This document shows positions 9,879 through 34,500 of a stretch of 64,000 nt of DNA, one piece after another. Each line of letters opens with the position of its first letter. The first letter of the stretch is position 1. Below the pieces are notes generated by a model. The model saw only the letters and a program-made list of their open reading frames with translations, did no database searches and was not told the origin of the DNA. The stretch is from Escherichia coli. Lineage in GTDB: Bacteria; Pseudomonadota; Gammaproteobacteria; Enterobacterales; Enterobacteriaceae. Both the position numbers and the translations under genes were made by a program. The stretch lies in NCBI RefSeq assembly GCF_016903815.1, contig NZ_CP069973.1; one strand, written 5' to 3'.

Positions 9879-9934
9879 GGTTTTCTCACTTCTGAATCGG
9901 GGTTAACCGGTCAGCCAGGCTGACCGGATGAAAA

Positions 9935-10453: not shown

Positions 10454-10465
10454 CGGTCAGGCTCC

Positions 10466-11656: not shown

Positions 11657-11985
11657 CCGTTTAACTCCGTGGTTAATGGGTGCAACTATTTTCTGTTGGG
11701 CAGTGCATGAGACGCCATTTGACCTGGCTGGTCAGTGGATGAAACAACAGATAAAGAAAATGCGGGCAATTCGCCCGCCTGTCCTGATTTGCACACACTC
11801 ATTTTCCGACTGACAGTTTACATAGCCCAAAAGTTATCAAATCTGACAGTCTGCTTTGAGCAAGAAGCGGACATTTGCCTGTCAGGGTATATGCCGCTCT
11901 GTGGTTATTATCCAGAATCAATAATTCATCTGAGTTGGATGACATATAAAACATAGTTACTCCATGAATAACCATTAGCAGATTA

Positions 11986-12579
11986 TCAATTATGTAAATC
12001 TTTTGTTTTATGTTCTTTAGCGTATTGTGACAACAAATGGCTATAGCGTTTAAGCAAAATATTAGAAAGATTAAGCTCATTCATGAAGTGTTCTTCTAAT
12101 AAGTAACCATCAATATCAACTTTAATATCATTACCACTTTTCATCTTCTGTAACGTAGATTTCACACGCTCCAGCAGGATGCTTTGCTCATGGTAATAGT
12201 CCATAAGAAGAGTAACATCCTCTTTATCAAGCTTACTTAATTCGCTGAAGTAGGATTTAAACACTTTATCAGTCTGGTTTAATGCAATCTGTAAGCGAGG
12301 CCCCCCTAATGATTTGACATTAATGGCAAAAGGCTCGCCAACAAAATGCTCCGAATTTTCGTCAAAGCCAATATATCTCGTTTTATCAAGAAAAGTGAGA
12401 GCGCGATGGTTATTAGCGATTTCATATGCAAACATTGTTCTGATACTGTCCCTCTCAGCCTCCATGCTTATATCATCACGGTGATTTGTATAAAATATAT
12501 TTCCAACAAAGAGAACCATAGCAAGAATCACTGAACTTGCCTCCCAGTTAATATTTTTAAATCGTCGCTTAGTAAACAT
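11986..12579 (-). CDS. AT-rich cargo gene at the Z/fun locus: membrane-anchored protein of unknown function
   Basis: 197 aa; N-terminal TM helix (SSVILAMVLFVGNIFY) then charged soluble domain; lies between G and FI where P2 carries Z/fun; visibly AT-rich. Confidence 0.6.
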   Translation of the reverse strand: MFTKRRFKNINWEASSVILAMVLFVGNIFYTNHRDDISMEAERDSIRTMFAYEIANNHRALTFLDKTRYIGFDENSEHFVGEPFAINVKSLGGPRLQIALNQTDKVFKSYFSELSKLDKEDVTLLMDYYHEQSILLERVKSTLQKMKSGNDIKVDIDGYLLEEHFMNELNLSNILLKRYSHLLSQYAKEHKTKDLHN

Positions 12580-12800
12580 ACCGCACCTTAATTATCAAAA
12601 ATATTCCTTCAGTGTTATCTGGTTAGCCTAAACCAAGTCATTAAAGTCCGCAGGATATCATATACATAAAATGTATTGATTAGAATTTGCACTAATAAAA
12701 TAATGCTTTACTGAAATCTACTCCAGACATAGAGCGGCCTGTCAGATTAGGCTTTACTCTGTGCCATAGATATGTAATCTCACACCAGAGCTTATACAAC

Positions 12801-13328
12801 TTATTGCGGCATTTCCGGCCATTCAGGATTTACAGGATCCACACGGCTGACCAGAACGCTGTAGCGTTCCCATGACTCCAGTCGTGCACGTTCCTCATCC
12901 GTCGCCATATTCAGCCTGACAGCGCGTTCCAGTGGCTGAATAACGCTTTCCGCTTCGGAAAGTAATGCGGCCTTTTGTGATTCTGCCTGTTGTTGCTGTT
13001 CATCTGCCGTATAAATCCGTTTAACCACAGCACCATCCTTAAACATCCATTTACCTGAGTCGTCAGCACGTCGGTTGGAGGTAATATCAGGAACCTCAAC
13101 AACGCTAAAACCTTCAGGGTTAAGCGTTGAAGCATCTCTGGTGATAGCGACAATAATATTATTTTCATCGTAAACAATCTTTATTGTGTCTGGCTGAAAG
13201 TTCTTCACTTCCTCATACCAGTTTTTTCCATCCTCAGAGTAAAGCCAGATAACTCCGTGTTTCTTTGTTAACTCATACTGTTCCAGTGTTTTAGCGTTAC
13301 CCGCTTTTATGTTCTTTAAGTGCATCAT
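12801..13328 (-). CDS. G: Tail fibre assembly protein gpG
   Basis: 175 aa; immediately downstream of H. Confidence 0.85.
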
Positions 13329-13329
13329 A

Positions 13330-15351
13330 TTAAACGCTCGCTACATTATACCAGGTGCCATTTATATACTTTTGAACGGGTCTGTAATAAACGCCCGCTA
13401 TATTATCGGCAGAGTTGGACCCTGTATCCTGAACATTAATACCAGACAATACATGACCTGACGGGCACTGGAAATTCCATGTTTGCCAGTTGTTCACTCC
13501 ATAATATTGCTGTGAACCAAGTCGAACATCTTTCACATATCTGGAATCAAAATTGCCATAGTTGCCAGGAATAACTTGCGAGCCACAAAGCCAGTTACCG
13601 TTATTATCCATGTACGCCTGACCATCGGTGCCATTGGCTGTCCTTGAGTTATTAATCATGTAGATGCCAAATTGCTTGTTCCCCAGTCCACCTATCATGA
13701 ACTTGCGGTCAGCGTGATTCTGGCGAAGCAACGCCTGAGCGCTATCAGTGTTAACTATATTTTTCCCAAAGATAGCGTTGTTATCGCGCATCTGAATCCA
13801 CATACCATTACTGCTGTTAATAGCAAAACGGTCTGAAAGCGTCTCCCCTGAAACATTAAGGCCACGCCCCATCGAAACAGCGCCAGTAGCGTTATTAATC
13901 CATAATGGCCTTAATCCGTTATAAGTCCCCATGTTGTCACCGGAGTTTGTCAACATGAAGTATGTATTTGAACCATCATTACGAATAAAGAATCCGTAAT
14001 TACCATAAGCAATACGTAGGCCGTTTGCTGATTTTGATATGACTTCGCCATTTACAATGGCATTGACAAGAACATACAAAGCATCCCATTTAAGATTCAT
14101 CAGGTCTTTTGTTGTAGTACTCTGGCGGCTTCTCCATTTGAAATATTCATTGCCGTTATCCCCCGTTTCAAACCACATGAATGAATCAGTGTCACCATCG
14201 GCATCATTTTTAAATCCAATCTTCGCCCAGTCAGTATTTCGAATCCAGGCAAGGATTGAGTCGTTTTCAAAAGTAAGTCCACCGGACAAGGTATCGCCAT
14301 TTTTTTGCACGGCGTTCCCGGCTCGGTTTACCGTTTCCTGTAAACCGAGATATTCGATAACGGCGGCAACGGTCGATTTAGCCAGAATATCCCGCCCGAC
14401 TTTTGTCAGGGTTGCCAGGCTGGCAACATCATTCCCCATAAAATACGGAAACCTGTCTGCCGCAGTAGCAAGCCCCGCCAGTGCCGTCAGGGTGGCATCT
14501 TTCGGTTGCTTCCCCGCAAGCGCATTAGTCATGGTGGTAGCAAAATTCGGGTCATTGCCCAGCGCCGCCGCCAGCTCGTTCAGCGTATTCAGTGCGTCAG
14601 GCGACGAGTCTACAAGGGCGGCAATCGCGGCCATAACGAAAGCCGTGTTTGCGATCTGAGTATTATTCGTTCCCTGTCGCGCAGTTGGCGTCGTTGGCGT
14701 TCCGGTCAGTGCAGGGCTGTTTAATGGCGCTTTCTTGTTCGTTTCATCCATTACCGTCTTAACGGCTTTCGGCGTTGCAGCCAGTGTTTCAGACGTGCTG
14801 TTGGTCGCACTGCTTAACTGAGTAAAACCTTTTGCGGTCAGCGAGGCGTCAGGGTGACGTCGTGACTGTTCATGTTCTGCAATTTTGTCATCAACGTAAT
14901 CCTGCGTCGCCATCACCGTTGTGGTGTCGATGGTCAGATCCACTGAGGCCACACTGCTGACGATAATGACCATGCGGCAGGTCTGCGAACGTCCTGAGCC
15001 TTCGGCAAGGGCTGGCTTATAACTTTCGGCCATGTTCGCCACGGCAATTAACGTTCCTGCATCATCGTACAGGCCAAGCTCACGCATCCAGAAACCGCCC
15101 ACCTCCGGCGGAATAACCAGCTCTGCGATAATATAATTACTGTTTCGTTTGTCCTGGCTGATTTTGTTCAGCGCATGTCGCCAGACTTCGTGGATAAGCC
15201 CGGTCTGTCCGGCATCCGGGACAGGCAATTTACCACCGCCATCCCCGACGGCCATCGTGGTAATGTTGACCTTCCGCCCTCCCGGCGCGGTTGCCGCTGC
15301 CAGCTTTGCTGCACCGGCAGTGGTGATAACGGTTTTGAATTTTGTGCTCAT
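13330..15351 (-). CDS. H: Tail fibre protein gpH
   Basis: 673 aa; conserved N-terminus ([21 protein letters not shown]), Ser/Thr/Asn-rich distal domain. Confidence 0.9.
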
Positions 15352-15361
15352 TATTCCTCAC

Positions 15362-15892
15362 TTATCCGGGGTAAACCGTAATTACATCGCCGTCATAAGC
15401 CACACCACCGGCAAACAGGTAGCCGGGAATGTCCCGGGTAATGTTCAGACCAATAAGGTGGCGGCTTGCAGGTTTGGCATCAGCAATCAGCCGTTCCATT
15501 TCCTGATACATTGCCTCTGTGATGCCGCTTTCCAGTACACCAATATCAAGCCGGAAGGTGCCGGGCGGGTCACTGTTTTCCCACCACTCCGTCACGTTGA
15601 TGAGATAGCCGAGCGGCTCCACCACACGCCGGATTGCACCTATTGTGCCTTTATGACAGTGGATGAAATACGCATCGCGGATAACGGCGCGTTTTGTCGC
15701 TTCCGGCCACTTTTCATCCCACCTGTCGACCGAAAACGCCCACGCCAGCCACGGCAGCAGATTTGCCGGACAGGTGTCCGGGTTCCACAGCTCACGAATA
15801 CTGACCGGCGTTTTTTCAATTTCCGCACAGGCTTTTGCGGCGGCGACCTCAAGCGGTGATGAGCCGGTCGGCAGCAGTCGCGAATCACTCAT
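15362..15892 (-). CDS. I: Baseplate protein gpI
   Basis: 176 aa; position. Confidence 0.85.
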   Translation of the reverse strand: MSDSRLLPTGSSPLEVAAAKACAEIEKTPVSIRELWNPDTCPANLLPWLAWAFSVDRWDEKWPEATKRAVIRDAYFIHCHKGTIGAIRRVVEPLGYLINVTEWWENSDPPGTFRLDIGVLESGITEAMYQEMERLIADAKPASRHLIGLNITRDIPGYLFAGGVAYDGDVITVYPG

Positions 15893-16793
15893 CCGAGCCT
15901 CCGGTCACGACGCGGTATTCGGTACAGAAAGACGCCTGCGTACTGTTGAGCACGATGTCGGCCAGTGGTGCAGCCAGTTCGACACGCTGCACACCTTCCA
16001 CATGCAAAGCGGCATAAATGGCAGACAGACGGATGTCGCGCCCCAGCCGGTGCTGTGCCGTGATATACGCTTCCAGCTTTTTCACAGCGGCAGCGCGGAT
16101 GGGTTCGCTTTCGGGACCAGGGTAAAGGTAAAGCGTGGCGTTTATCTGGTATTCAACGATGGCGGCAGACTGCACGGTCACGCGGTCGGCCACCGGCCTG
16201 ACGTCCTCGCCATTAAGGGCGTTACGCACCACAGCCAGCAGGTCTTCGGATGCGACGCCGTTATTTTCACGTGACAGCACAGAGATGGTGACACAGGCAG
16301 GAGACGGACTGGTGACAGAAATATCCGCGACACGCCCGTCAGCACTGCGACCATGATACTGATAGGCTCCCACTGACCCGGCGACGCTTAAGCCCTCAAA
16401 AGCCTGCTGAATACGCAGACGATAATCGGTGTCAGATTCCATCACTGCCGGTGTCGGTGGAATGGTCGAATCATCTGCCGGGGTGATAGTCAGGCGCGTG
16501 GTGTTGTAATTGGCACCAATCACATCAAGGTCATTACCGGCGGCACAGGCCAGCATCACCGCCCGTGCGGCCTCATTCACACGCTGACGCCAGATAAGCT
16601 CACGATAAGCATTTTCTTCCAGCAGTTTGACGAGAGGCTCAGATTCCAGTGTCAGGGTACGGGCGACCGCCTCCTGCTGATCTTCCGGGTAAAGGGAAAT
16701 CAGTGTCGCCTTGCGTTCAGCGAGAATGCTTTCAAAGTCCAGCTCCTCGACCACATCTGGTGCGGGTAGCTGGTTCAGGTCGATAATCGGCAT
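15885..16793 (-). CDS. J: Baseplate protein gpJ
   Basis: 302 aa; position. Confidence 0.85.
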   Translation of the reverse strand: MPIIDLNQLPAPDVVEELDFESILAERKATLISLYPEDQQEAVARTLTLESEPLVKLLEENAYRELIWRQRVNEAARAVMLACAAGNDLDVIGANYNTTRLTITPADDSTIPPTPAVMESDTDYRLRIQQAFEGLSVAGSVGAYQYHGRSADGRVADISVTSPSPACVTISVLSRENNGVASEDLLAVVRNALNGEDVRPVADRVTVQSAAIVEYQINATLYLYPGPESEPIRAAAVKKLEAYITAQHRLGRDIRLSAIYAALHVEGVQRVELAAPLADIVLNSTQASFCTEYRVVTGGSDE

Positions 16794-16797
16794 GGTT

Positions 16798-17145
16798 TCA
16801 ACTCACAGGGATGGTTAATGAAAGTGGCTGGCCGGTGTCGTTGTGCTGGCCGGTTAACGTGACCGTCATTCGCCCGTCAAAACTGCGCTCAGTGGTGACG
16901 GATGACAGGGTGACGCGGGGTTCCCATTTCAGCACCGCCATGTAACAGGCGACCTTAATCTGCAACTCAAGCGCCGGGGTCTGCGGCTGGTCAATCATTG
17001 ATGCCAGCAACGAGCCGTAATCACGACGCATCACCCGTGAGCCGACCGGTGTGCGCAGGATATCGCCGATACTCTGGCTGATATGCTCAAGGTCAGTGAC
17101 AGTCAGGCCATCACTGCGATTCATTCCGAGATAACGCGCTGTCAT
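16798..17145 (-). CDS. W: Baseplate protein gpW
   Basis: 115 aa; position. Confidence 0.85.
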   Translation of the reverse strand: MTARYLGMNRSDGLTVTDLEHISQSIGDILRTPVGSRVMRRDYGSLLASMIDQPQTPALELQIKVACYMAVLKWEPRVTLSSVTTERSFDGRMTVTLTGQHNDTGQPLSLTIPVS

Positions 17146-17771
17146 AAAGGACTCCCGGTTGTGCCGCCGCTGTCGCCGGGGTGTTTGTGGGTATGCAGTA
17201 CCTTACCGTTTGATGAGAGTTCACCGCCGGTGTGTTCAATGTTGCCGCGCATCGTCCCGCCCTTCTGCACTTCCAGCGTGCCGGTAGTCAGTTTGTTAGT
17301 GCAGACCACTTCTGGTGTGTCCAGGGTGACGCGGGTTGATGCTTTCACCGTGACCACTGGTACCGTGGCAGTAACAGAATCAGAAGCCGTCACGCTGGCC
17401 GTTTTAATTCCGCTTACCGTGAGTGCACTGGTTTCAGGTTCATACTCAATCACCGCCCCGTCAGGGAAACGGATATGCAGGGCATCCGCCGACGCAGACG
17501 GCGCAGGGTTATCGCCGGAATAAATCCCCGGCAGAACGAACGCCGTGTCGAGTTCACCGCCCACGGCCAGAATCAGCACCTGTTCCCCCACGGAAGGTGC
17601 CCACCATGTGCGCGAACGCCCAGCGCGATGGGTCAGCCACTGAAGCCAGTCGGTGCACATGCCGCCAGTCTGCACACGGCAGCGACCGGCATTAAGGTCG
17701 GTTTCGACGATAATGCCAGTGCGAATCATATTGCGTATAAAGCGAAGAATTTCATTGTATTGTGCATTCAT
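17142..17771 (-). CDS. V: Baseplate spike/assembly protein gpV
   Basis: Start chosen at MNAQYNEILRF for a P2 V-like length; the upstream ATG at 17849 is an alternative. Confidence 0.8.
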   Translation of the reverse strand: MNAQYNEILRFIRNMIRTGIIVETDLNAGRCRVQTGGMCTDWLQWLTHRAGRSRTWWAPSVGEQVLILAVGGELDTAFVLPGIYSGDNPAPSASADALHIRFPDGAVIEYEPETSALTVSGIKTASVTASDSVTATVPVVTVKASTRVTLDTPEVVCTNKLTTGTLEVQKGGTMRGNIEHTGGELSSNGKVLHTHKHPGDSGGTTGSPL

Positions 17772-17857
17772 TCGATAATAATGATTCTGTACAATCTCGA
17801 AGTAAATCACACCACGATTTCTGGTGCACAGAACAACAAGGGACAACAAAATCCATT

Positions 17858-18931
17858 ATGAGTACTTACTTTTTCTCGTCAGAAACAATGAAAGAATTGT
17901 TCAAAGATTATCTGGTCTTTTTGAACACGCTGACTCCCAGCACAAACTTTGAATCAAACAGAAACAAAATAATTGCTCAAGCAATAAACTTCATTTCCGA
18001 AAACCCTGAAGATTGGGACAAAAAATCCCAGTACAACATTGCTATGATTGGCGACACCTTTAAAAGTTTCTTAAGAGAAAAGGGGGAAGATAACAACAGC
18101 ATCAACCTTATATTCACTTGCTTTTTTAGATTTATCATTGAACCAAGCATTCTCTCTCCGGAAATAGAGTCTCACTTTTCACCACTAAGAACCATCAAGG
18201 ATTTTGCTCTGTATAACTATAATGAATTCGATGAGCGGAGCAGAGCACAGATAGACTTTTCTCTTAGAGAACTGCCATTAGCAATGGTTAAAGAAGTTTT
18301 AAGCTCCAGCAATGTTGACACATATAAAAAATACATTGATAGTTTAAACGAAGGGCGTCAATTTTTCGAAAAGTGCGACTCCTTCTTAAAGGAGCAACAT
18401 GCCAAAATAGAGTCAATTAAAGAGTCATTAAAAGGGTATGAGGTCGCATTTAATTTTGTTGGATTGTTTGATGGCTTTAATTCACTTGGCAAAAAGAAAG
18501 AAAGTGAAATCATGCTATCAAGAATAATTCTTATCATCTTGGCTATAATCATTCCCTCCCCGCTGATATACTATGGAATGCATAAATTACCAACTCTCGA
18601 AACGACAAATGCTGCCACATATTTTATGTCAGCACTACCTTTTGCATCAGTTACATTGATTTTCATGTATTACTTTAGAGTTGTACTGATAAATCATATA
18701 TCGTTACGAACTCAGATTATGCAAATAGAACTCAGAAAGAGCCTTTGTCAGTTCATTCAGAGTTATAGCGACTATTCCTCAGAGATAAGGAAAAACAATC
18801 CGGAAGCGCTTTCAAAATTCGAAGACGTAGTATTTTCAAACATCATGCTATCCGATGATAAGATACCATCTACATTTGATGGCATTGAGCAAATAGCATC
18901 GTTAATCAATTCATTAAAAAATGGAAAGTAA
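17858..18931 (+). CDS. AT-rich cargo gene at the orf30 locus: protein with two C-terminal TM helices, unknown function
   Basis: About 357 aa from MSTYFFSSETMKELF; soluble N-terminal domain, two hydrophobic helices (IMLSRIILIILAIIIPSPLIYYG; AATYFMSALPFASVTLIFMYYF); opposite strand to flanking tail genes; own terminator. Confidence 0.65.
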   Translation: MSTYFFSSETMKELFKDYLVFLNTLTPSTNFESNRNKIIAQAINFISENPEDWDKKSQYNIAMIGDTFKSFLREKGEDNNSINLIFTCFFRFIIEPSILSPEIESHFSPLRTIKDFALYNYNEFDERSRAQIDFSLRELPLAMVKEVLSSSNVDTYKKYIDSLNEGRQFFEKCDSFLKEQHAKIESIKESLKGYEVAFNFVGLFDGFNSLGKKKESEIMLSRIILIILAIIIPSPLIYYGMHKLPTLETTNAATYFMSALPFASVTLIFMYYFRVVLINHISLRTQIMQIELRKSLCQFIQSYSDYSSEIRKNNPEALSKFEDVVFSNIMLSDDKIPSTFDGIEQIASLINSLKNGK

Positions 18932-18936
18932 TGATA

Positions 18937-18959
18937 AAAGGCCAATAACTGGCCTTTTA
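18937..18959 (+). terminator. Rho-independent terminator after the orf30-locus cargo gene
   Basis: Hairpin aaggccaataactggcctt followed by T-rich run. Confidence 0.6.
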
Positions 18960-19033
18960 TTTATTAACATGAAAATTCAAAATAAATTATGCTAATCAAT
19001 TGATTTCTATCTTATATTCTCAGATGATTAAAT

Positions 19034-25403: not shown

Positions 25404-27176
25404 ATGACCATCACCACAGACACCACTCTTTTACACGACCCGCGTCGTCAGGCGGCGCTGCTGTACTGGCAGGGGTTTTCCGTGCCGCAGATTGCCGCCA
25501 TGTTGCAGATGAAACGCCCGACGGTGCAGAGCTGGAAACAGCGCGACGGCTGGGACAGCGTTGCCCCCATCAGCCGTGTCGAAATGAGTCTGGAAGCGCG
25601 GCTGACCCAGCTCATCATCAAACCGCAGAAAACCGGCGGTGACTTCAAGGAAATTGACCTGCTGGGACGCCAGATTGAACGACTGGCACGGGTCAACCGT
25701 TACAGCCAGACCGGCAACGAGGCAGACCTTAATCCGAACGTCGCTAACCGCAACAAAGGCGGGCGGCGCAAACCGAAAAAGAATTTTTTCAGTGACGAGG
25801 CCATCGAAAAGCTGGAGCAGATTTTCTTTGAGCAGTCTTTCGACTATCAGTTGCACTGGTATCGCGCCGGGCTTGAGCACCGCATCCGCGATATCCTGAA
25901 ATCCCGCCAGATTGGCGCAACGTTTTATTTTTCCCGCGAGGCGCTGCTGCGCGCCCTGAAAACCGGTCATAACCAGATTTTTCTGTCGGCCAGTAAAACG
26001 CAGGCGTATGTGTTCCGCGAATACATCATCGCCTTTGCCCGGCTGGTTGACGTTGACCTGACCGGTGACCCGATTGTCCTGGGCAATAACGGCGCAAAAC
26101 TGATTTTTCTCGGCACCAACTCCAACACCGCACAGAGCCATAACGGCGACCTGTACGTCGACGAGATTTTCTGGATCCCGAATTTTCAGGTACTGCGTAA
26201 GGTGGCATCAGGTATGGCCTCACAGAGTCACCTGCGCTCGACCTATTTCTCCACCCCGTCCACGCTGGCGCACGACGCCTACCCGTTCTGGTCGGGTGAA
26301 CTGTTCAACCGGGGACGCGCCAGCGCCGCCGAACGCGTGGAAATCGACGTCAGTCATAACGCCCTTGCCGGTGGGCTTCTCTGTGCGGACGGCCAGTGGC
26401 GACAGATTGTCACCATTGAGGACGCCCTGAAAGGCGGCTGCACGCTGTTCGACATTGAGCAGCTCAAACGCGAAAACAGCGCCGACGATTTTAAAAACCT
26501 GTTCATGTGTGAATTTGTTGACGACAAGGCATCGGTGTTCCCGTTCGAGGAGCTGCAACGCTGCATGGTCGACACGCTGGAAGAATGGGAAGACTATGCA
26601 CCGTTTGCCGCCAATCCGTTCGGCTCCCGCCCGGTATGGATTGGTTACGACCCGTCACACCGTGGCGACAGCGCCGGATGCGTGGTGCTGGCACCGCCGG
26701 TGGTGGCCGGTGGCAAATTCAGAATACTTGAGCGTCACCAGTGGAAAGGCATGGACTTTGCCACCCAGGCTGAATCCATCCGCAAACTCACCGAAAAATA
26801 CAACGTCGAATACATCGGAATTGATGCCACCGGCCTCGGTGTCGGCGTGTTCCAGCTCGTGCGCTCGTTCTATCCCGCCGCGCGCGACATCCGCTACACG
26901 CCGGAAATGAAAACCGCAATGGTGCTCAAGGCCAAAGACGTTATCCGCCGTGGCTGTCTGGAATATGACGTCAGCGCCACCGACATCACCAGCTCGTTTA
27001 TGGCTATCCGCAAGACCATGACCAGCAGCGGACGCAGTGCCACCTATGAAGCCAGCCGCAGCGAGGAAGCCAGCCACGCCGACCTCGCCTGGGCGACCAT
27101 GCACGCCCTGTTAAATGAGCCACTCACCGCCGGTATCAGCACCCCGCTGACATCCACCATTCTGGAGTTTTACTGA
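25404..27176 (+). CDS. P: Terminase large (ATPase) subunit gpP
   Basis: Start at MTITTDTTLL; about 590 aa; position. Confidence 0.9.
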   Translation: MTITTDTTLLHDPRRQAALLYWQGFSVPQIAAMLQMKRPTVQSWKQRDGWDSVAPISRVEMSLEARLTQLIIKPQKTGGDFKEIDLLGRQIERLARVNRYSQTGNEADLNPNVANRNKGGRRKPKKNFFSDEAIEKLEQIFFEQSFDYQLHWYRAGLEHRIRDILKSRQIGATFYFSREALLRALKTGHNQIFLSASKTQAYVFREYIIAFARLVDVDLTGDPIVLGNNGAKLIFLGTNSNTAQSHNGDLYVDEIFWIPNFQVLRKVASGMASQSHLRSTYFSTPSTLAHDAYPFWSGELFNRGRASAAERVEIDVSHNALAGGLLCADGQWRQIVTIEDALKGGCTLFDIEQLKRENSADDFKNLFMCEFVDDKASVFPFEELQRCMVDTLEEWEDYAPFAANPFGSRPVWIGYDPSHRGDSAGCVVLAPPVVAGGKFRILERHQWKGMDFATQAESIRKLTEKYNVEYIGIDATGLGVGVFQLVRSFYPAARDIRYTPEMKTAMVLKAKDVIRRGCLEYDVSATDITSSFMAIRKTMTSSGRSATYEASRSEEASHADLAWATMHALLNEPLTAGISTPLTSTILEFY

Positions 27177-28210
27177 TGAGCAAGAAAAAAGGGAAAACAC
27201 CGCAACCTGCGGCAAAAACAATGACCGCCAGCGCCCCGAAAATGGAGGCATTCACCTTTGGTGAGCCGGTGCCGGTACTCGACCGCCGTGACATTCTGGA
27301 TTACGTTGAGTGCATCAGTAACGGCAGATGGTATGAGCCACCGGTCAGCTTTACCGGTCTGGCAAAAAGCCTGCGTGCTGCCGTGCATCACAGCTCACCG
27401 ATTTACGTCAAACGTAATATTCTGGCCTCGACATTTATCCCGCATCCGTGGCTTTCCCAGCAGGATTTCAGCCGCTTTGTGCTGGATTTTCTGGTGTTCG
27501 GTAATGCATTTCTGGAAAAGCGTTACAGCACCACCGGTAAGGTCATCAGACTGGAAATCTCACCGGCAAAATATACCCGCCGTGGCGTGGAGGAGGATGT
27601 TTACTGGTGGGTGCCGTCCTTCAACGAGCCGACAGCCTTCGCGCCCGGTTCCGTGTTTCACCTGCTGGAGCCGGATATTAATCAGGAGCTGTACGGCCTG
27701 CCGGAATATCTCAGCGCCCTTAACTCTGCCTGGCTGAATGAGTCGGCCACGCTGTTCCGCCGCAAGTATTACGAAAACGGCGCTCATGCCGGATACATCA
27801 TGTACGTCACTGATGCCGTGCAGGATCGCAACGATATCGAAATGCTTCGCGAAAACATGGTTAAGTCGAAAGGCCGCAATAACTTTAAAAATCTGTTTCT
27901 CTATGCCCCGCAGGGGAAAGCCGACGGCATTAAAATTATCCCGCTCAGTGAAGTGGCGACGAAGGACGATTTTTTTAATATCAAAAAAGCCAGCGCCGCA
28001 GACCTGCTGGACGCGCACCGCATCCCCTTTCAGTTGATGGGCGGCAAGCCGGAGAACGTCGGGTCGCTGGGTGATATTGAGAAAGTGGCAAAGGTCTTTG
28101 TCCGCAATGAGCTTATCCCGCTACAGGACAGGATCCGCGAGATAAACGGCTGGCTCGGTCAGGAGGTCATCCGCTTTAAAAACTACTCACTGGACACTGA
28201 CAACGACTGA
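27176..28210 (+). CDS. Q: Portal protein gpQ
   Basis: 344 aa; coupled to P. Confidence 0.9.
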   Translation: MSKKKGKTPQPAAKTMTASAPKMEAFTFGEPVPVLDRRDILDYVECISNGRWYEPPVSFTGLAKSLRAAVHHSSPIYVKRNILASTFIPHPWLSQQDFSRFVLDFLVFGNAFLEKRYSTTGKVIRLEISPAKYTRRGVEEDVYWWVPSFNEPTAFAPGSVFHLLEPDINQELYGLPEYLSALNSAWLNESATLFRRKYYENGAHAGYIMYVTDAVQDRNDIEMLRENMVKSKGRNNFKNLFLYAPQGKADGIKIIPLSEVATKDDFFNIKKASAADLLDAHRIPFQLMGGKPENVGSLGDIEKVAKVFVRNELIPLQDRIREINGWLGQEVIRFKNYSLDTDND

Positions 28211-28596
28211 ACATCGCCGCCTGCGGGCGGCTTTTTTACATCCCGTCATCACGCCCTCACACGCTCACCACCGCACAAAACACCCCTTAGACACACCAAC
28301 GCCCCGACGCACAATCTAAACGCCATCACGACGCGCTCAGACGCTGAAAAAATAAAATCAGCACCACCGCCAGCGCGCAGTGCTTTCCCCGCCTCGCCCG
28401 CCCGCTTCATGAGACGGTTTTGATGCAGTCGCATTTGTCTTGAAAACCAAGTAACTAGACGGCTATCAGTCATAGACAGGCAGCTTTTTTTTTCATACAT
28501 TTTGTATGCAAAATCATGCACGCCTAATCAAGACGAATCTTCGTTCACAGCCATTATGCATGAATGCGAAAATTACTGTTCGAAAAAGGATAATTT
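28211..28596. other. cos / packaging region (by position after Q); also holds the promoter and RBS of the GHKL gene
   Basis: Non-coding stretch after the portal gene where P2 carries cos; exact cos ends not identified. Confidence 0.35.
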
Positions 28597-30021
28597 ATGG
28601 TTTCGTCAAACGTCAAAATAGCAGCATTTCCAGCAAAAAGATTCTTTGTTGAGATGCTCACCCGAGATATTGAGTTGTCTGACTCAATTCTAGATTTACT
28701 AGATAACTGCCTAGATGGTGTATTAAGAAAAAACAATTTCACTCCAGAGCAAACCTTCGGTAAATCAGACGTTTACAAGGGTTACTATGCTCATATTGAA
28801 TTTGATGAGAATAGTTTCAGAATAACTGATAATTGCGGAGGTATTCCAGCAAAACTTGCGGAAAGCTATGCGTTTAGGTTGGGTAGACCTGCAGAACGTG
28901 AGGCGGATGATCTCCCGACAATTGGTGTATATGGTATCGGAATGAAACGAGCGATTTTCAAAATGGGGACATCTGCTCAGATTTTAAGCAAAACTGAAAA
29001 CGAACAATTTTCAGTTACCATTTCTCCTGAATGGATGGCTGATGATGAAAACTGGTCTTTGGAGTTAGAGCGAAATAATGTTGACTTAAACGAAACAGGC
29101 GTCAGCATCCAAATTAACAATTTAAGGAAAGATATTAAAGCATCCCTATCAAAGGATCGTGGCTTTGAAGAAGTTTTGATTAATATCATAGCAAATCATT
29201 ATAGTTTAATCATTAAAAAAGGGTTTGAGGTTAAAGTAAATGGATGTATTGTTAAGCCAAATAGCACCAATTTAATATTTGATGAAGAAGCCATTAAAGG
29301 CAATACCGACGGCATTGCTCCTTATGTATATAAAAATAATTCAAATGGAGTTTCAATTAAAGTTGCAGTTGGATTTTATCGTAACTTGCCTAGTGAGGAA
29401 GAAGAAGAGAATTTATTATCAGGCCGTTCCACAACAGAAAAAGCTGGTTGGACAATTATATGCAATGATCGTGTAGTCCTACATGCGGATAAAACCAAGC
29501 TTACAGGTTGGGGAGAAGCTGGAGTTCCACAATATCATACTCAATTCATCGGAATTTCTGGTGTTGTTATTTTCACATCATCAAATGCTGAATTACTACC
29601 TATCACTACAACTAAACGAGGTGTTGATGGTAACTCTGAGCTATATCTTTCTACTAAAGATTTTATGCGCGAGGGTTTAAAATTCTTCACGGACTTTACC
29701 AACAAATGGAAAAGTAACGCAGAGGAAAGAAAGCAAATTATTAATACTGCATCCAATATGGTTTCAACAACTGAGGTCGACTTTACTAAATCAATTCCTA
29801 GAGAAAACTGGTCGAACGTTCGACGTTCAATAGGAGGAGAAGTTTTCAAACCGAAGCTACCAATGCCTCGGGATTCGGATCCATTACGTCAGATAAAATT
29901 TAGCCGTAGACATAGTGAAATAAAACTGGTGTCAGAGTTTCTCTTTGATGATGCAACTCAACCACCAACAGAGGTTGGTCAATATTGTTTTGATGAATTT
30001 CTAAAAAAGGCTAAACAATGA
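28597..30021 (+). CDS. GHKL-superfamily (MORC/MutL/Hsp90-like) ATPase, cargo gene at the tin/old locus
   Basis: 474 aa; Bergerat-fold motifs read directly: N-box DLLDNCLDG, G1 box DNCGGIP, G2 box GVYGIGMK; AAGGA RBS; AT-rich. Confidence 0.75.
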   Translation: MVSSNVKIAAFPAKRFFVEMLTRDIELSDSILDLLDNCLDGVLRKNNFTPEQTFGKSDVYKGYYAHIEFDENSFRITDNCGGIPAKLAESYAFRLGRPAEREADDLPTIGVYGIGMKRAIFKMGTSAQILSKTENEQFSVTISPEWMADDENWSLELERNNVDLNETGVSIQINNLRKDIKASLSKDRGFEEVLINIIANHYSLIIKKGFEVKVNGCIVKPNSTNLIFDEEAIKGNTDGIAPYVYKNNSNGVSIKVAVGFYRNLPSEEEEENLLSGRSTTEKAGWTIICNDRVVLHADKTKLTGWGEAGVPQYHTQFIGISGVVIFTSSNAELLPITTTKRGVDGNSELYLSTKDFMREGLKFFTDFTNKWKSNAEERKQIINTASNMVSTTEVDFTKSIPRENWSNVRRSIGGEVFKPKLPMPRDSDPLRQIKFSRRHSEIKLVSEFLFDDATQPPTEVGQYCFDEFLKKAKQ

Positions 30022-31010
30022 GTACTGGCGGAAGCATCCCATATCATTTGCGGCAAAACAAAGCCATTGAAAGGAATCTATTTATAGAATCCCTAAGAAG
30101 GTTAAACAATTATACAAACATATCCGAATATGTATATATAGGATTCGGGGGGCCTTTCCTCGAAGATTTCAAACAAATTCATAATTTGTTAAAAGTGACT
30201 AAAATGATATCTATCGAAGGAGATAAAAATGTCCATTGCCGACAACAGTTTAACAAACCATTATCTTGCATAAATTTGGGTGATACCCCAGAAATGAGCG
30301 GAGACTTCATCAATCGCTATAACTTTGACGATAAAACGATCATATGGTTAGATTATGCAACGCCTTCAGACTTAAATGCTCAGTTAAATGAAATAGTTAA
30401 TTTGGTTACAAAGCTAAAACCCAAAGACATTTTTAAGATCACTTTAAATGCAAACCCTGAAGCCTTGGGAAAAAACCCGAGCGAACGAGATCCAAGAGCA
30501 TATAGATTTCAAAAGATAAACGATATTTTGACTCAAGATTTTTTACCACCGAATGCAGTAGTCGAAGATGTCGGATTTAAAAAATACCCTATGCTCCTAG
30601 TTAATGCTATGAGACGCGCAATAGGGCATGGATTAAAAGGTCGAAATGACATAAGAATACATCCATTAACTTCTTTCGTTTATAAAGATGGCCAACAGAT
30701 GGTTACTTTAACAGCTATCGTTCTTGAAAACACTGATACAGAAGAAGCTAAATTTATTGATAATTCCAGAATCAAGAATTGGCCATTTTATGATGGGAAG
30801 TGGAGTAATCCTAAAAATATAAACGTCCCTGCTATGTCTTTAAAAGAAAGGATACATATTGAATCTTTATTACCCGAAGCTTCAGTAGAAAACATCCATG
30901 AAACTCTAGGGTTTTACATTGGCTCCACTCCTTCTGGAGCCAACTCCGATCTAAGTAATTTTATCGAATACTACAAGGTCGTTCCATGGTATTCAAAGAT
31001 TCTTTTTTAA
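30018..31010 (+). CDS. Uncharacterised 330-aa protein, translationally coupled to the GHKL ATPase
   Basis: Start overlaps the GHKL stop by 4 nt; no motif recognisable by eye; AT-rich. Confidence 0.65.
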   Translation: MSTGGSIPYHLRQNKAIERNLFIESLRRLNNYTNISEYVYIGFGGPFLEDFKQIHNLLKVTKMISIEGDKNVHCRQQFNKPLSCINLGDTPEMSGDFINRYNFDDKTIIWLDYATPSDLNAQLNEIVNLVTKLKPKDIFKITLNANPEALGKNPSERDPRAYRFQKINDILTQDFLPPNAVVEDVGFKKYPMLLVNAMRRAIGHGLKGRNDIRIHPLTSFVYKDGQQMVTLTAIVLENTDTEEAKFIDNSRIKNWPFYDGKWSNPKNINVPAMSLKERIHIESLLPEASVENIHETLGFYIGSTPSGANSDLSNFIEYYKVVPWYSKILF

Positions 31011-32118
31011 CTTTTAAACAGTAATCGTATAAAGGTAATAGCATAGCCTCAGCCACAAGCGGACTAACGCTATTACCTATCTGTCTAAAACTGTGCCACT
31101 TTGTAGGATGAAAACGGAACCAATCAGGAAACCCTTGTAACCTAGCTGCTTCACGAGGAGTTATCACCCTAGCTTGAGTAGGGTGAATTGGCCTAACGGC
31201 CTGATAACTCCCCTTGTCACTTCCTGTACCTGCTCTCAAAGTTGGACAAAAACCGTTAGGATTGAGTCGTTGTGATCTCGAAATCTTATCAGTTTCACCG
31301 AATGAAAGTTGTCTATATCTCCTGAGCACTTCCTCCGAATGAGCTGTACCTAAAAAGCCAGATACCAATCCTTTCTTTAAATTTTGAATGGATTCTGCAT
31401 CACCTACACCATTTGGTATATGTCCCCAAAGTCGCTCATAATAGTAACCATCTTTATCCATTTTTACTGAACGCCAGCCTTGCTCCTCTGTCTGCCACTC
31501 TTTTCTTATAGTTCGCGGTAATCCGTAGAGTGCATCTTTGACAAGAGTCTGCTCTATTATATTTTTAGGAAAAAAATCAGATTCTTTTAACTGATTAATA
31601 AAACCTCTTTTAAAACCCATGAAAAATATTCGTGTCCGTGTCGTAGGTGCTCCATAATTTGAAGCATTAACCCTTATTGGATGTAATAAACAATAGCCAT
31701 CTCTAACTAAAGAAAATGCTTCTTCTCTTACTGGATTATATTTCTCACCCATAATTCCTGGAACATTCTCTGCCAAAAAACAAATTGGAGATAACTCACT
31801 TACCAACCTAAAAAAATGAATATACAATTCATTTCTTGTATCATTGGCATTCCTTTTTCCAATGGTGCTAAATCCTTGGCAAGGTGGACCACCAATAACG
31901 CAATCAATGTCCTTTACAGCACATGCAGACAAAATATCTTTTGCTGTAAGCGAGCAGACATCCCGATGCAAATGTGTTGATTTTGGGAAGTTTAACTCAT
32001 GTGAAAAAATAGCATGTTTATCCAGTTCAACAGCTCCAACCAAGTTGAAACCGGCTCGAGTTGCCCCTAAGCTTAAACCGCCAACTCCAGAGAATAAATC
32101 AACTACATTCATATTCAA
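30961..32118 (-). CDS. DNA (cytosine-5)-methyltransferase
   Basis: 385 aa; motif I DLFSGVGG, motif IV GGPPCQGFS, motif VI ENVPG, C-terminal QIGNSVSP; 3' end overlaps the partner gene by 50 bp convergently. Confidence 0.85.
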   Translation of the reverse strand: MNMNVVDLFSGVGGLSLGATRAGFNLVGAVELDKHAIFSHELNFPKSTHLHRDVCSLTAKDILSACAVKDIDCVIGGPPCQGFSTIGKRNANDTRNELYIHFFRLVSELSPICFLAENVPGIMGEKYNPVREEAFSLVRDGYCLLHPIRVNASNYGAPTTRTRIFFMGFKRGFINQLKESDFFPKNIIEQTLVKDALYGLPRTIRKEWQTEEQGWRSVKMDKDGYYYERLWGHIPNGVGDAESIQNLKKGLVSGFLGTAHSEEVLRRYRQLSFGETDKISRSQRLNPNGFCPTLRAGTGSDKGSYQAVRPIHPTQARVITPREAARLQGFPDWFRFHPTKWHSFRQIGNSVSPLVAEAMLLPLYDYCLKVKKESLNTMERPCSIR

Positions 32119-32394
32119 ATAACCATGCTAAAGATTCAACTAACGATCATGTATTCTATCATGACATCAGTCATTGTCTAAAGCCATAGTTGCTTTAAAA
32201 GTTGAATCAAACTAACAATCCCTTAATGTGAGAAAGTGATTTTTCGGATGATTAATAGCCACGCTCCAGCCCCCTGAAGTTCCCAATTTGCTGCTGATGG
32301 TCATTTTGAAAAACTCAAAGCAAGTGAACGACAGTTACTCTCTCCAAGCTCCGACCATCCAAACGAACAATGTAATCCTATGCAATTATATCAG

Positions 32395-34500
32395 CTAGCC
32401 ACTTATCTTCTCTTGCCGAGTAAACATTGGCAAATAATGCTTTAATGTGTTTCTAAACACTCTGACGACCTCTGGGTCACTCCATTCGATAACACCGTCA
32501 TCAACCAGATTAAGCACTGCTGCGGCGTGCTCAGAAGGTGTGGGAGCCGGTAACGAAGTATCACCACCAGTGAGCTTTCCACAGTTATTGACAGGACTCC
32601 GAGGCGCGGCGATGCCGCTTTTTAAAGTCAAAGGCTCAACGACCGGAACTTTCGGCACAATGCGCCAGTCCGTCGTTCTGGTGATATGAATATGACGCGC
32701 GCCGAGATGCGGCGCGTAAATGCCGACCACTCTCTCGACTTCTTCCTCGTACTCGTTAACGTCATCCGACGGGCTACGGGCAACCCTGACAGTCTGACAA
32801 TCGCGCGGGACATTTGCCCCACCCTGCGCGCTGATATACAACGCAAAATCACCACTGTCTGCGGCAGCGCGAGCAGCCTCGACGCGTTCGTCAAACTCAT
32901 CAGCAATACTGACGCCGCGAGGCAATTTGCGTAGTTCACGGTAAGCCCCCATTGTCGGCAGTCCAACCGTTTTAAATTGCGGGATGCGCCACGTTGACGC
33001 CCATGCAGTAACAGCCGCGGCAGTATCTTTCAGAGGTCTGCCGGTATCGTTATCGAGCTGACCATCCAGTGCATAGCCGTCGATGTTTTTTGAGATGTAT
33101 TTCGCGATATACCCCGCAGCACCGCCCCGGTTAAGGTGTTTTGCCTGAAAACGGTTTCGCGCGGCTCCTCTTTCGTCGCCATCCTCTTTGAGCGCATAGC
33201 GACGCATGATTTCGATAATCTGGTTACGCTGGCGCGGATTACAAAAAAGCATCATATGCCAGTGCGGCGTTCCGTCGTGGTGTGGCTCGACGACACGCAA
33301 ACCGTAGACCTGTAAATCATTATCCTTGAATGCCGTGCGCATCAGGCTCCAGATACGGCAGAGATAACGCTGCGCATCCTTTGGATTAAATGCCTCATCG
33401 TTCCAGCCGTGATTTAGCTGGACGGTTTTACTTTCGCCTTTTCTGACCTGACGTGTCGGGTGATACTTTGACGGCGCGGTCAGCGTGATAAACATCCCCA
33501 CATCACCCTCTGCTGCGGCGTAACGCTCAATACCGGCAATGGTGTTCATCAGCTCCATCCGGCGAATTTCAGGATTAGAAATACTGCCCATCACCTTACT
33601 GATAAGGTCGATGCGCTCGCCGGTTTCCCTGTTTTCGAGATCACACGATTTAAGAAATTCCAGATTTGCCTGGCGGCGTGCACGCACATCACGAATGGCA
33701 TGTTTACTGGCATAAGGAGAACGGTCTTTATTGACCTCCCCGACAGCAATCAGTAACGCCTCATGCCAGCGCATACGCTGGCCTTTAAGCTGATGAGTCC
33801 ACCACTCATCGTTAAACAGACGGGCAATGGCAGAATATGCCTGCCTCGTGGTCATCTGCCCTTTACGGTATTTTTTCCAGTAGAGAGGGGATATATTGAA
33901 AGCACGTGCAGCGCCAGCAACATGACCATAGAGGTGAGCCTGCGCCTCATCCGTAAACAGCGATTCTTTTTCGCCATGCGCATCCACCCAGGCATCGCTG
34001 AGTTCCTCATACATCATGAAAAGCTGCGATGAGATACGGGCAGCAAACTTTTTCAGCTCCTTGTCATTCATTCCCGGCAGGCGCGCATAGTGGTCACGCT
34101 CTGCCAGAAACAGTAACGACGCGTCGGTGTTCATTTCATGGCGCTGATTCACACGCTCAATGCGCGGCCATAAACGGCGCTGAAAAGTGGATGTGAGGAA
34201 ATAAAACCCGTGCACCGGGCTTTTATTGCGCCGGATGTAGTCATAGCGTGAAGTAAACAGCGAACGCAAAAAGTAAGGCAGGCGGTTAATCGTGGATAAA
34301 ACACCTTGCACCTGACGCATCTCGTCACGTGTAAGGGGTCTTTCGCGCCCGACAGCCTCGCGTGGCGCGCTCCATGCATAAGCACCGGTAAACGTCTTAC
34401 CGGTGCCTGCAGCAAATGCTGACGGAGGGACAAAACGCCCGGAGGCTTTAATGGCCATATGAGCCAAAAGCCTCTGAACAACGCTTGCTGAGTTGCTCAA
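32395..34500 (-). CDS. A: Replication initiation endonuclease gpA
   Basis: 701 aa in-frame ORF; position at end of early operon; true start may be upstream. Confidence 0.8.
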   Translation of the reverse strand: MSNSASVVQRLLAHMAIKASGRFVPPSAFAAGTGKTFTGAYAWSAPREAVGRERPLTRDEMRQVQGVLSTINRLPYFLRSLFTSRYDYIRRNKSPVHGFYFLTSTFQRRLWPRIERVNQRHEMNTDASLLFLAERDHYARLPGMNDKELKKFAARISSQLFMMYEELSDAWVDAHGEKESLFTDEAQAHLYGHVAGAARAFNISPLYWKKYRKGQMTTRQAYSAIARLFNDEWWTHQLKGQRMRWHEALLIAVGEVNKDRSPYASKHAIRDVRARRQANLEFLKSCDLENRETGERIDLISKVMGSISNPEIRRMELMNTIAGIERYAAAEGDVGMFITLTAPSKYHPTRQVRKGESKTVQLNHGWNDEAFNPKDAQRYLCRIWSLMRTAFKDNDLQVYGLRVVEPHHDGTPHWHMMLFCNPRQRNQIIEIMRRYALKEDGDERGAARNRFQAKHLNRGGAAGYIAKYISKNIDGYALDGQLDNDTGRPLKDTAAAVTAWASTWRIPQFKTVGLPTMGAYRELRKLPRGVSIADEFDERVEAARAAADSGDFALYISAQGGANVPRDCQTVRVARSPSDDVNEYEEEVERVVGIYAPHLGARHIHITRTTDWRIVPKVPVVEPLTLKSGIAAPRSPVNNCGKLTGGDTSLPAPTPSEHAAAVLNLVDDGVIEWSDPEVVRVFRNTLKHYLPMFTRQEKISG

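Follow-up and report, generated by a model that had tools for sequence, protein, structure and literature searches.

A three-gene cassette in the P2 gpQ-gpA hotspot

The window analysed here is a 64,000-nucleotide stretch of the Escherichia coli contig NZ_CP069973.1, in which three genes totalling only ~3.5 kb sit in the gpQ-gpA defence hotspot of a P2 prophage (Table 1). The first two encode a MORC-like GHKL ATPase and a 330-aa protein matching Pfam family PF20553, and the third, which converges on them, encodes a Dcm-type DNA (cytosine-5) methyltransferase whose 3' end overlaps that of the PF20553 gene by 50 nt (30961-31010). The initial annotation had noted that the start codon of the 330-aa gene overlaps the GHKL stop codon in an ATGA-type junction and had proposed an ATPase paired with a possible effector. 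The overlap is read directly from the sequence and recurs as a 4-nt overlap in 48 of 62 related loci, with all other junctions at 13 nt or less, and it is predicted to couple the translation of the two genes. The coupled pair thus stands, but the convergent methylase had been missed, and its presence turns the proposed ATPase and effector pair into a methylation-linked three-gene module. Position 30018 is the true start of the PF20553 gene, since the alignment with homologues of other genera begins at M1 ('MSxGGSIPYHLR'). All three cassette genes are under strong purifying selection, the PF20553 gene having a dN/dS of ~0.06 relative to its Enterobacter orthologue, a comparison in which dS is saturated.

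Table 1. Features of the cassette and its edges, with positions given in the window.
Feature	Position	Strand	Description
Terminator-like hairpin after portal gene Q	28216-28231	+	Left edge of the low-GC cassette
GHKL ATPase gene, MORC-like	28597-30021	+	474 aa; RefSeq WP_029401227.1, 'ATP-binding protein'
ATGA junction	30018-30021	+	PF20553 ATG overlapping GHKL TGA
PF20553 gene	30018-31010	+	330 aa; RefSeq WP_029401228.1, 'O-methyltransferase'
Dcm-type DNA (cytosine-5) methyltransferase gene	30961-32112	-	383 aa; WP_029401229.1; convergent with the PF20553 gene
Promoter-like site upstream of the Dcm gene	32153-32180	-	TAGACA-16-TAGAAT, TG before the -10; consensus match only

The cassette has a GC content of 0.38, versus 0.53 in the rest of the prophage. 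Promoter-like sites are not enriched in the region (17 versus 12.3 ± 3.5 expected from shuffles).

The ATPase consists of a GHKL domain, an S5-type transducer and a helical C-terminal region, and with its ATP-binding motifs intact it has the GHKL-S5 arrangement of MORC and paraMORC proteins. Its closest solved structures are MORC3, SMCHD1 and MORC2, over 285-319 aligned residues, and no nuclease fold was matched by its C-terminal region. The window protein shares with eukaryotic MORC proteins and SMCHD1 a similar ATPase structure and a functional association with cytosine methylation, but it lacks their CW, coiled-coil and hinge domains and occurs in a bacterial context. The Dcm protein matches TIGR00675 dcm (E=2.5e-51) and the PADLOC MTase_II profile (E=5e-100), the latter more strongly than DrmMII-type profiles, carries the motifs DLFSGVGG, GGPPCQGFS, ENVPG, RTR and GNSVSP, and shares 63% identity with PDB 3g7u, the solved structure of the O157:H7 prophage methylase. 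Compared with type II restriction-modification systems, the cassette contains what looks like an active methylase, while a recognisable endonuclease is absent, and neither a helicase nor an endonuclease, separate or fused, was found between gpQ and gpA in the window.

Fold and conserved residues of the PF20553 protein

By its profile match, the 330-aa protein belongs over its full length to PF20553 (Methyltransf_35; E=5.4e-85, score 285.9, residues 3-328 on model positions 2-307 of 309), an assignment common to all of its homologues, close and distant. Its AF2 model (pLDDT 96) has a seven-stranded Rossmann-like sheet with the canonical b1-b7 strand order and an antiparallel b6-b7 hairpin, the fold of class-I SAM methyltransferases. 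The initial annotation had recognised no catalytic motif and had suggested a new effector domain. Instead, mapping of the motifs onto the secondary structure of the model placed the class-I hallmarks where they would be expected: a G42-F43-G44-G45-P46 loop, E67 and D112 follow strands 1, 2 and 4, respectively. In an alignment of 94 PF20553 sequences at 30-50% identity, G44 and E67 are each kept in at least 90% of sequences and D112 is invariant. The positions of the G42-P46 loop and E67 suggest that they form a SAM pocket, and D112, Y/F113, N144, Y222 and D224 make up a cluster resembling an active site. Y9, R12, K15, R19, R75, Q76, N79 and E277 are likewise invariant and go beyond what SAM binding would need.

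The best structural matches of the PF20553 protein are nucleic-acid methyltransferases, with RNA-base N- and C5-methyltransferases first. Like RsmD, Trm1 and RlmJ, it has a Rossmann-type seven-stranded core in which strand 1 leads into a glycine loop, strand 2 into an acidic residue and strand 4 into an Asp plus an aromatic residue. It differs from them in a conserved N-terminal helix (PYHLRxNKAxxR), an insertion at residues 145-211 and a C-terminal helical domain, and its motif IV reads D-[YF]-x-x-P rather than (D/N)PP(Y/F). Identity to these enzymes is ~10% over 150-215 of the 330 residues, with no detectable sequence homology; hhalign of PF20553 against E. coli RsmD returned a probability of 0.2%, no other Pfam methyltransferase family matched at E<=10, and a profile search of PDB sequences gave no match. 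The kinship with methyltransferases thus appears, from the model, to lie at the level of the fold, with no sequence link to a characterised methyltransferase. The name 'O-methyltransferase' is an unsupported functional label for the family, and structure comparison does not back the 'O-'. A literature search for PF20553 or Methyltransf_35 found no paper and no characterised member. Some distant structural relatives in AFDB bear the name TcmP (three-Cys-motif partner). This identity was rejected for the PF20553 protein, which had no NCBIfam match even at E<=10.

The partner had also been proposed to be a nuclease or another killing activity switched on by the ATPase. It is the sole protein of the cassette that is neither an ATPase nor Dcm, it has many more invariant polar residues than SAM binding calls for, and toxicity could in theory arise from methylation of a Watson-Crick face of DNA or RNA. 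The predicted fold, however, is that of a methyltransferase and not of any known nuclease, PLD, TIR or HEPN protein, and no effector family was matched; Pfam, PADLOC and NCBIfam searches for HNH, PD-(D/E)xK, PLD, TIR, HEPN and Toprim domains were all negative. As genomes that carry the pair with no linked antidote also tolerate it (see below), we consider a toxic effector quite improbable. No homology to a housekeeping or phage morphogenesis protein was found for the 330-aa protein.

Conservation and genomic setting of the GHKL-PF20553 pair

Related loci were collected by a search run on a 23-sequence PF20553 alignment. This revealed that a GHKL gene lies directly upstream of the PF20553 gene in all loci with upstream sequence, with independent metagenome loci in agreement, and that the pair is conserved as a unit in organisms ranging from E. 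coli to Planctomycetes, and in one archaeon. Pairwise identities of the two proteins correlate with r=0.81, versus 0.30-0.44 for correlations with Dcm, showing that the GHKL and PF20553 proteins co-evolve. These results bear out the earlier view of the 330-aa protein as a partner of the ATPase: PF20553 is its obligate partner, probably co-translated and in complex with it.

Dcm is present in the flanks of 46 of 59 loci, adjoining the pair in 39 of them in three different arrangements, and Vsr is found in 17 of the 59, which gives PF20553 loci the MORC/paraMORC-type neighbourhood of a DNA methylase with or without Vsr. The Dcm proteins of the cassettes form a coherent lineage (mean 47% identity) and are better conserved than the pair, as comparison of the two E. 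coli triads gives 63% identity for Dcm, versus 35% for PF20553 and 43% for GHKL. Hypervariability of the Dcm TRD was considered as a sign of changing specificity, but conservation of the TRD is similar to that of other regions outside the motifs, which makes the comparison uninformative on specificity. The database name could be taken at face value, making PF20553 an O-methyltransferase of small molecules or proteins that has no relation to DNA and lies in a coincidental neighbourhood. The nucleic-acid methyltransferases among its best structural matches, its absolute linkage to a MORC-like ATPase and frequent linkage to Dcm and Vsr across phyla, and the finding that no metabolic genes are conserved near PF20553 loci make this highly improbable.

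In filamentous cyanobacteria, where it lies between ndhF and ndhD, and in Parabeggiatoa, the pair occurs with neither a linked Dcm nor a linked defence gene. The Dcm-less loci are flanked by ndh genes, a protease gene and genes for TPR and unknown proteins, and no other methylase or defence gene was found there. One homologous pair is located inside a class-1 DISARM operon, and there an MmeI-like N6-adenine methylase is linked to it instead of a Dcm. Around 11 of the 59 loci encode another GHKL protein in addition, whose C-terminal effector domain is HEPN-like or of another type and which lies beside Dcm in 10 of them. These additional GHKL proteins, together with the conserved SAM-pocket motifs and the attachment of the pair to methylation systems as chemically distinct as the Dcm cassettes and a DISARM operon of m6A type, would fit a guard of SAM-dependent immunity, in which PF20553 would sense phage factors that disturb methylation (SAM lyases or methylase inhibitors, for instance) and pass the signal on through the GHKL ATPase. 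This idea is speculative and has no precedent. Moreover, the window cassette contains no effector, and the invariant, catalytic-type D112 and the accompanying aromatics argue for substrate chemistry over mere ligand sensing, making such a guard improbable.

The setting of the cassette also agrees with the defence context originally suggested, as the window locus lies in a phage-defence hotspot. Table S5A of Rousset et al. (2022; PMC9122126) includes precisely this cassette, with the PF20553 protein entered as 'hypothetical'; the accession appears there only in the locus catalogue and is absent from the tables of tested systems. Elsewhere, a divergent copy is found on a lambdoid prophage of O157:H7 strains (checked in EDL933) and a variant on the Pf phage PfAC20, and related cassettes are cargo of Tn7 elements or lie beside a NotI restriction-modification system. 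The cassette is thus widespread, being carried by prophages (P2-like, lambdoid and Pf), Tn7-like transposons and genomic islands. No family of PADLOC-DB v2.0.0 matches the GHKL or PF20553 protein, with only Dcm matching the generic MTase_II, DruM and DrmMII, and NCBIfam profiles returned nothing for the two proteins. A literature search on GHKL, O-methyltransferase and Dcm in defence found no paper and no experiment on the cassette.

Carriage by three types of temperate phage would also suit a pure modification module, in which PF20553 would be a second, ATPase-assisted DNA (or RNA) methyltransferase that acts with Dcm to decorate element and host DNA. The marks would shield that DNA from foreign restriction systems or serve in epigenetic control, and the module itself would restrict nothing. 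The conserved SAM-type motifs and the D112, Y/F113, N144, Y222 and D224 cluster suggest a working enzyme, a nuclease is absent from the cassette, and solo pairs are tolerated in cyanobacteria. Yet a methylase has no need of a MORC-type clamp ATPase, to which PF20553 is always coupled. Tn7 cargo, restriction-modification neighbours and the DISARM embedding are defence contexts, and the pair diverges more rapidly than Dcm, a behaviour it shares with immune sensors and effectors. We therefore regard this as possible, if unlikely; were it correct, the cassette would be an ATP-dependent methylation machine carried by temperate phages.

A candidate methylation-based defence and its relation to known systems

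Judging from gene content and context, the three-gene cassette is probably a new kind of methylation-based phage defence. The specific reading we favour, at a probability of roughly 0.5, is a restriction-modification-type immune module in which PF20553 is the SAM-binding, nucleic-acid-engaging subunit and the ATPase is a DNA clamp; the physical GHKL-PF20553 complex, SAM binding, DNA as the substrate and the anti-phage role that it entails are all things we infer. In such a module, Dcm would mark resident DNA and the ATPase/PF20553 complex would be the discriminating or executing half. PF20553 may act either as a base-flipping reader of the target or its methylation state or as a methyl donor on nucleic acid, and the MORC-like ATPase would supply ATP-driven DNA clamping. 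Counting against this reading, no recognisable nuclease or other executing domain was found in the three window proteins by Pfam, PADLOC, NCBIfam or fold comparison. The solo pairs of cyanobacteria and Parabeggiatoa are unexpected for a toxic restriction half, and the N6-adenine enzyme of the DISARM-embedded pair counts against a scheme based on Dcm.

Immunity that needs no nuclease is conceivable, in which a methyltransferase-fold reader would load the MORC clamp onto DNA lacking the Dcm mark, with the clamp compacting or blocking that DNA. Such a cassette would be a prokaryotic counterpart, and possibly an ancestor, of MORC/SMCHD1 silencing coupled to cytosine methylation. A silencing or compaction role for the window ATPase would be drawn by analogy with these proteins, and we hold this proposal to be rather doubtful.

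Bacterial MORC-type ATPases beside cytosine methylases were predicted in 2008 to be components of restriction-modification systems and the source of eukaryotic MORCs, the prediction extending to GHKL paraMORCs with Dcm and Vsr (Iyer, Abhiman & Aravind 2008, PMC2292703). The operons described there share with the present cassettes a GHKL-S5 ATPase, a neighbouring cytosine methylase, often Vsr, and a location on mobile DNA. They have in addition SF-II helicases together with RE-fold, HNH or other nucleases, or a nuclease or TIR domain fused to the ATPase, whereas the constant partner in the present cassettes is a methyltransferase-fold protein, and the window cassette lacks a nuclease. A PF20553-type partner is not described in that study. 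[quoted passage not shown] 2021, PMC8011034) are similar in combining an uncharacterised paraMORC-like GHKL protein, a small partner and an upstream Dcm, but their partner is receiver-like and their ATPase has an additional histidine-kinase-like module. The proposed module is also reminiscent of DISARM and BREX, in which a methylase marks self, ATPases are needed and a nuclease is dispensable or absent; no drmA/B/C/D/E or BREX genes were found in the window cassette.

The cassette is a minimal three-gene version that is native to E. coli and easily cloned, and it occupies an experimentally validated defence hotspot of P2 prophages, with related copies in many phyla. If anti-phage, its two methyltransferase-type proteins and DNA-clamp ATPase, with no visible nuclease, would represent a new logic for methylation-based immunity and offer a tractable system in which to study the reading of DNA methylation by MORC ATPases. 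The GHKL protein of the Vibrio WASA paper was also considered as a relative; it is a Shedu-type paraMORC3 and belongs to a different family from the window ATPase.

Family, fold and conserved residues of the PF20553 protein

The initial annotation had placed an ORF of 330 codons with an ATG start here, overlapping the stop codon of the GHKL gene, and both features hold: at the junction aaacaATGAgt, the PF20553 start codon overlaps the TGA of the 474-codon ATPase ORF. As homologues from other genera align from residue 1 (MSxGGSIPYHLR...), the annotated start is the real one. In E. coli strain 7/2, which carries identical DNA, RefSeq names the three products of the cassette "ATP-binding protein", "O-methyltransferase" and "DNA cytosine methyltransferase". 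Comparison with Enterobacter orthologues gave dN/dS values, rough because dS is saturated, of ~0.06 (PF20553), 0.02 (ATPase) and 0.03 (methylase), and the PF20553 gene is constrained.

The same annotation had seen no recognisable motif in the protein and suspected a toxic effector. Over its full length, the sequence proved to belong to Pfam PF20553 (Methyltransf_35, "putative O-methyltransferase"; E=5.4e-85), and a toxic role now appears highly improbable. A further match is to PHROG 19983, a family of function not known; PADLOC and NCBIfam gave none, and the PDB yielded no relative by sequence, profile search included. Nuclease and toxin families, TcmP and all PADLOC systems were considered for the protein and rejected.

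A highly confident AlphaFold2 model from an alignment of 94 diverse homologues (pLDDT 96.1, pTM 0.92) predicted a canonical class-I SAM-methyltransferase topology, to whose core an N-terminal helix, an insertion at residues 145-211 and a C-terminal helical domain are added. Structure comparison matched 150-215 residues at ~10% identity, with O-methyltransferases further down the list at comparable scores (ChlM 12th, a COMT-derived chain 34th), so that the "O-" of the family name is neither backed nor contradicted; we consider it extremely unlikely that PF20553 is a true O-methyltransferase of small molecules or proteins. Comparing its profile with that of E. coli RsmD returned nothing, placing the kinship to known methyltransferases at the level of fold only.

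Residue conservation was measured across the 94 sequences, which share just 30-50% identity. This revealed that conservation reaches at least 90% at G44, within the G42-F-G44-G45-P46 loop that follows strand 1, and at E67, which follows strand 2, and that K15, R19, R75, W110, D112, Y222 and E277 are invariant, D112 lying at the end of strand 4 and being followed by Y/F113. In the model, the conserved residues fall at the SAM pocket and catalytic motif IV positions of the class-I fold, a placement that suggests a working SAM-binding active site. By predicted fold and motifs, the protein is a class-I methyltransferase. That it serves as a SAM-sensing guard of methylation-based immunity seems very unlikely. 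Taken jointly, its identity, fold and coupling to the ATPase are very nearly certain.

Coupling to the MORC-like ATPase and linkage to Dcm

The PF20553 family comprises 1,674 cluster representatives at 50% identity (E<=1e-3). One genome per species was scanned with two peptide patterns of the query family, a procedure that samples motif-keeping members, and 57 loci emerged in Proteobacteria, Cyanobacteria, Verrucomicrobia, Latescibacteria, Acidobacteria, Chloroflexi, Planctomycetes and Firmicutes, together with one archaeal member from a Methanoregulaceae archaeon. Gene linkage was then determined by searching the ORFs of every locus iteratively with HMMs; the co-occurrence counts refer to ~60 loci picked by the motif-based scan, some on truncated contigs. 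Wherever upstream sequence exists, a GHKL gene of ~460-480 codons lies directly 5' of the PF20553 gene, with a 4-nt stop/start overlap in 48/62 loci and a spacing within 13 nt in the remainder, and pairwise identities of the two proteins correlate at r=0.81 (phylogeny ignored). The ATP-binding motifs of the partner are invariant in 43 homologues (N37, DxGxG at 78-82, the G110/G113/G115 lid and the T339-K340-R341 transducer), and its final ~125 residues are helical and gave no nuclease match. These results establish a methyltransferase-fold protein obligately coupled to a MORC-type DNA ATPase.

A Dcm-type C5 methylase was found in the flanks of 46 of the 59 non-redundant loci and was adjacent in 39. 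Of these, 18 have it upstream and 9 downstream on the same strand, and 12 have it downstream and convergent. Such variable methylase placement is typical of R-M gene pairs. The Dcm of the window has the full set of C5-methylase motifs and matches TIGR00675, and all Dcm partners belong to one coherent lineage (mean identity 47%). Their identities correlate more weakly with those of the pair (r=0.30-0.44, phylogeny ignored), and swaps occur now and then: in Massilia, for instance, the pair is neighbour to a Dcm-Vsr-NotI system. Vsr homologues occur in 17/59 loci, which argues that the linked Dcm enzymes truly methylate cytosines in the genome. Distant homologues, looked up independently, again showed the triad in Tn7-like elements of V. 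cholerae and Aeromonas, in P. syringae and Burkholderia, and on three metagenome contigs. It is thereby established that a dedicated m5C methylase, in some loci along with Vsr, usually accompanies the pair.

Mobile carriers and variant loci

The window holds E. coli chromosome and a P2-like prophage, in which the cassette (GC 0.38 versus 0.53 in the remaining prophage) occupies the cos-proximal gpQ-gpA locus, bordered by the portal gene Q and the replication gene A. The cargo of P2 itself at this locus is old and tin. The whole cassette occurs in 45/5,426 complete E. coli genomes. Rousset et al. (PMC9122126) showed gpQ-gpA to be a hotspot of anti-phage systems; the cassette accessions appear there in the locus catalogue only and in none of the tables that cover tested systems. 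The identical RefSeq record marks gene A as a pseudogene whose C-terminus is missing; insertion of the cassette may have caused this truncation, and the prophage may be replication-defective. Two further low-GC inserts lie among the P2 tail and baseplate genes, and may be cargo of other P2 variable loci; neither has a PADLOC match, and a near-identical genome calls both just "hypothetical protein". Relative to strain 7/2 (NZ_CP023820.1), in which the cassette is 100% identical, coordinates shift by ~312 nt in the tail-gene region (~9000-19000), and the window therefore represents a different, closely related lysogen.

Features of the window and of related loci (L numbers denote loci with GHKL and PF20553 genes outside the window)
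Feature	Coordinates	Strand	Remark
Low-GC insert	11986-12579	-	phrog_3829, function not known
Low-GC insert	17762-18931	+	phrog_9373, function not known
Portal gene Q	27176-28210		one border of cassette
GHKL ATPase gene	28597-30021	+	474 codons
PF20553 gene	30018-31010	+	330 codons
Shared 3' ends of PF20553 and Dcm genes	30961-31010		50 nt, convergent
Replication gene A	32395-34500	-	other border of cassette
EDL933 triad	L075:3547-7046		GHKL (463 aa), then PF20553 (329 aa), convergent Dcm
PfAC20 ORF1-3	L070:280-3711		GHKL, PF20553, cytosine methylase
pR24_2 DISARM operon	L071:449-12831		drmD, MmeI-like methylase, GHKL, PF20553, drmA, DUF1998, drmC; overlapping or abutting
Second GHKL gene	L002:10256-12088
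Second GHKL gene	L017:3846-5486
Second GHKL gene	L032:195-1892		not Dcm-adjacent
Rhodoferax MAG locus	L022:5613-12706		two pairs, one Dcm gene
Locus listed with the cyanobacterial solo pairs	L025:22-1059

A divergent triad with the same architecture is found in a lambdoid prophage of E. coli O157:H7 EDL933, and its Dcm is identical to the PDB 3g7u protein. Identities to the window are 35% for PF20553, 43% for GHKL and 63% for Dcm, marking Dcm as the slow-evolving and the ATPase/PF20553 pair as the fast-evolving part. The window Dcm is matched at just 60-80% DNA identity in ~179 E. coli genomes, among the matches listed mostly O157:H7 and O111, the neighbouring genes having been checked in EDL933 alone. 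The Pseudomonas filamentous phage PfAC20, an inovirus and the sole match among 50,697 phage records, encodes the triad with a PF20553 protein of 26.6% identity, and on the Microvirga terrae plasmid pR24_2 the pair (31% identity) lies inside a class-1 DISARM operon. The carriers established are thus three kinds of temperate phage, Tn7 elements and islands, with the pair wired into DISARM once.

In eleven loci, three of them in the table, an additional GHKL protein of greater length (530-610 aa) is encoded, next to Dcm in ten. The three C-termini tested gave HEPN-type (Aga_HEPN 2e-18, PD-Lambda-3_B) or PD-Lambda-5_A profile matches, making this protein a possible effector arm absent from the window. 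A Rhodoferax MAG has one Dcm gene flanked by two paralogous, converging pairs of GHKL and PF20553 genes. The filamentous cyanobacteria Nostoc, Scytonema and Kastovskya (L023, L024, L028) carry a solo pair between or beside the NAD(P)H-quinone oxidoreductase genes ndhF/ndhD with no linked methylase; an MTA/SAH-nucleosidase-like (PNP-fold) gene stops 20 nt 5' of the GHKL gene of Scytonema UIC 10036. The Parabeggiatoa pair has neither a linked methylase nor a known defence gene.

A possible methylation-linked immune module

Given the obligate coupling, the methylase link, the mobile carriers and the DISARM case, the evidence is most simply read as a methylation-linked immune module, to which we assign a probability of roughly 0.5, because no executing nuclease is recognisable in the window proteins and the solo pairs and the m6A-type DISARM methylase misfit a simple "Dcm antidote" model. 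In such a module, Dcm would mark resident DNA, and a complex of the ATPase and PF20553 would discriminate and then act, the MORC-like dimer supplying ATP-driven clamping. On the strength of its fold neighbours and conserved Asp/aromatic active-site-like residues, PF20553 is proposed to be a SAM-binding subunit engaging nucleic acid, possibly as a base-flipping reader or methyl donor.

Execution is the weak point of the immune-module reading, as profile and fold searches found no recognisable nuclease in the three window proteins. By analogy, the complex might act without cutting, in a BREX-like manner or as MORCs compact DNA; it might borrow a nuclease, be it the second GHKL protein of some loci, Vsr or a host enzyme; or it might have no restrictive activity at all. 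A pure modification or epigenetic module, with PF20553 as an ATP-assisted second methylase, we regard as unlikely.

Iyer, Abhiman and Aravind had predicted modules of this general sort for GHKL paraMORCs (PMC2292703). The cassette would resemble paraMORC-type R-M operons in its working but lacks their helicase/nuclease feature, and differs from type II R-M in having no endonuclease. Nor is the cassette a DISARM system. Bioinformatic work has described a sister theme in which HATPase_c_3/HEF_HK is combined with Response_reg_2 and Dcm (PMC8011034). Our literature search found no paper on PF20553 or on the triad. The protein fold and the general association of GHKL proteins with methylases are already known; the triad of MORC-like, methyltransferase-fold and Dcm proteins, its breadth and its absence of a nuclease are not yet described.

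The convergent PF20553 and Dcm genes share their 3' ends, which may produce transcriptional interference between the two arms; end-to-end convergent overlaps also occur elsewhere, for example in a Burkholderia locus (L009) and in EDL933 (33 nt).
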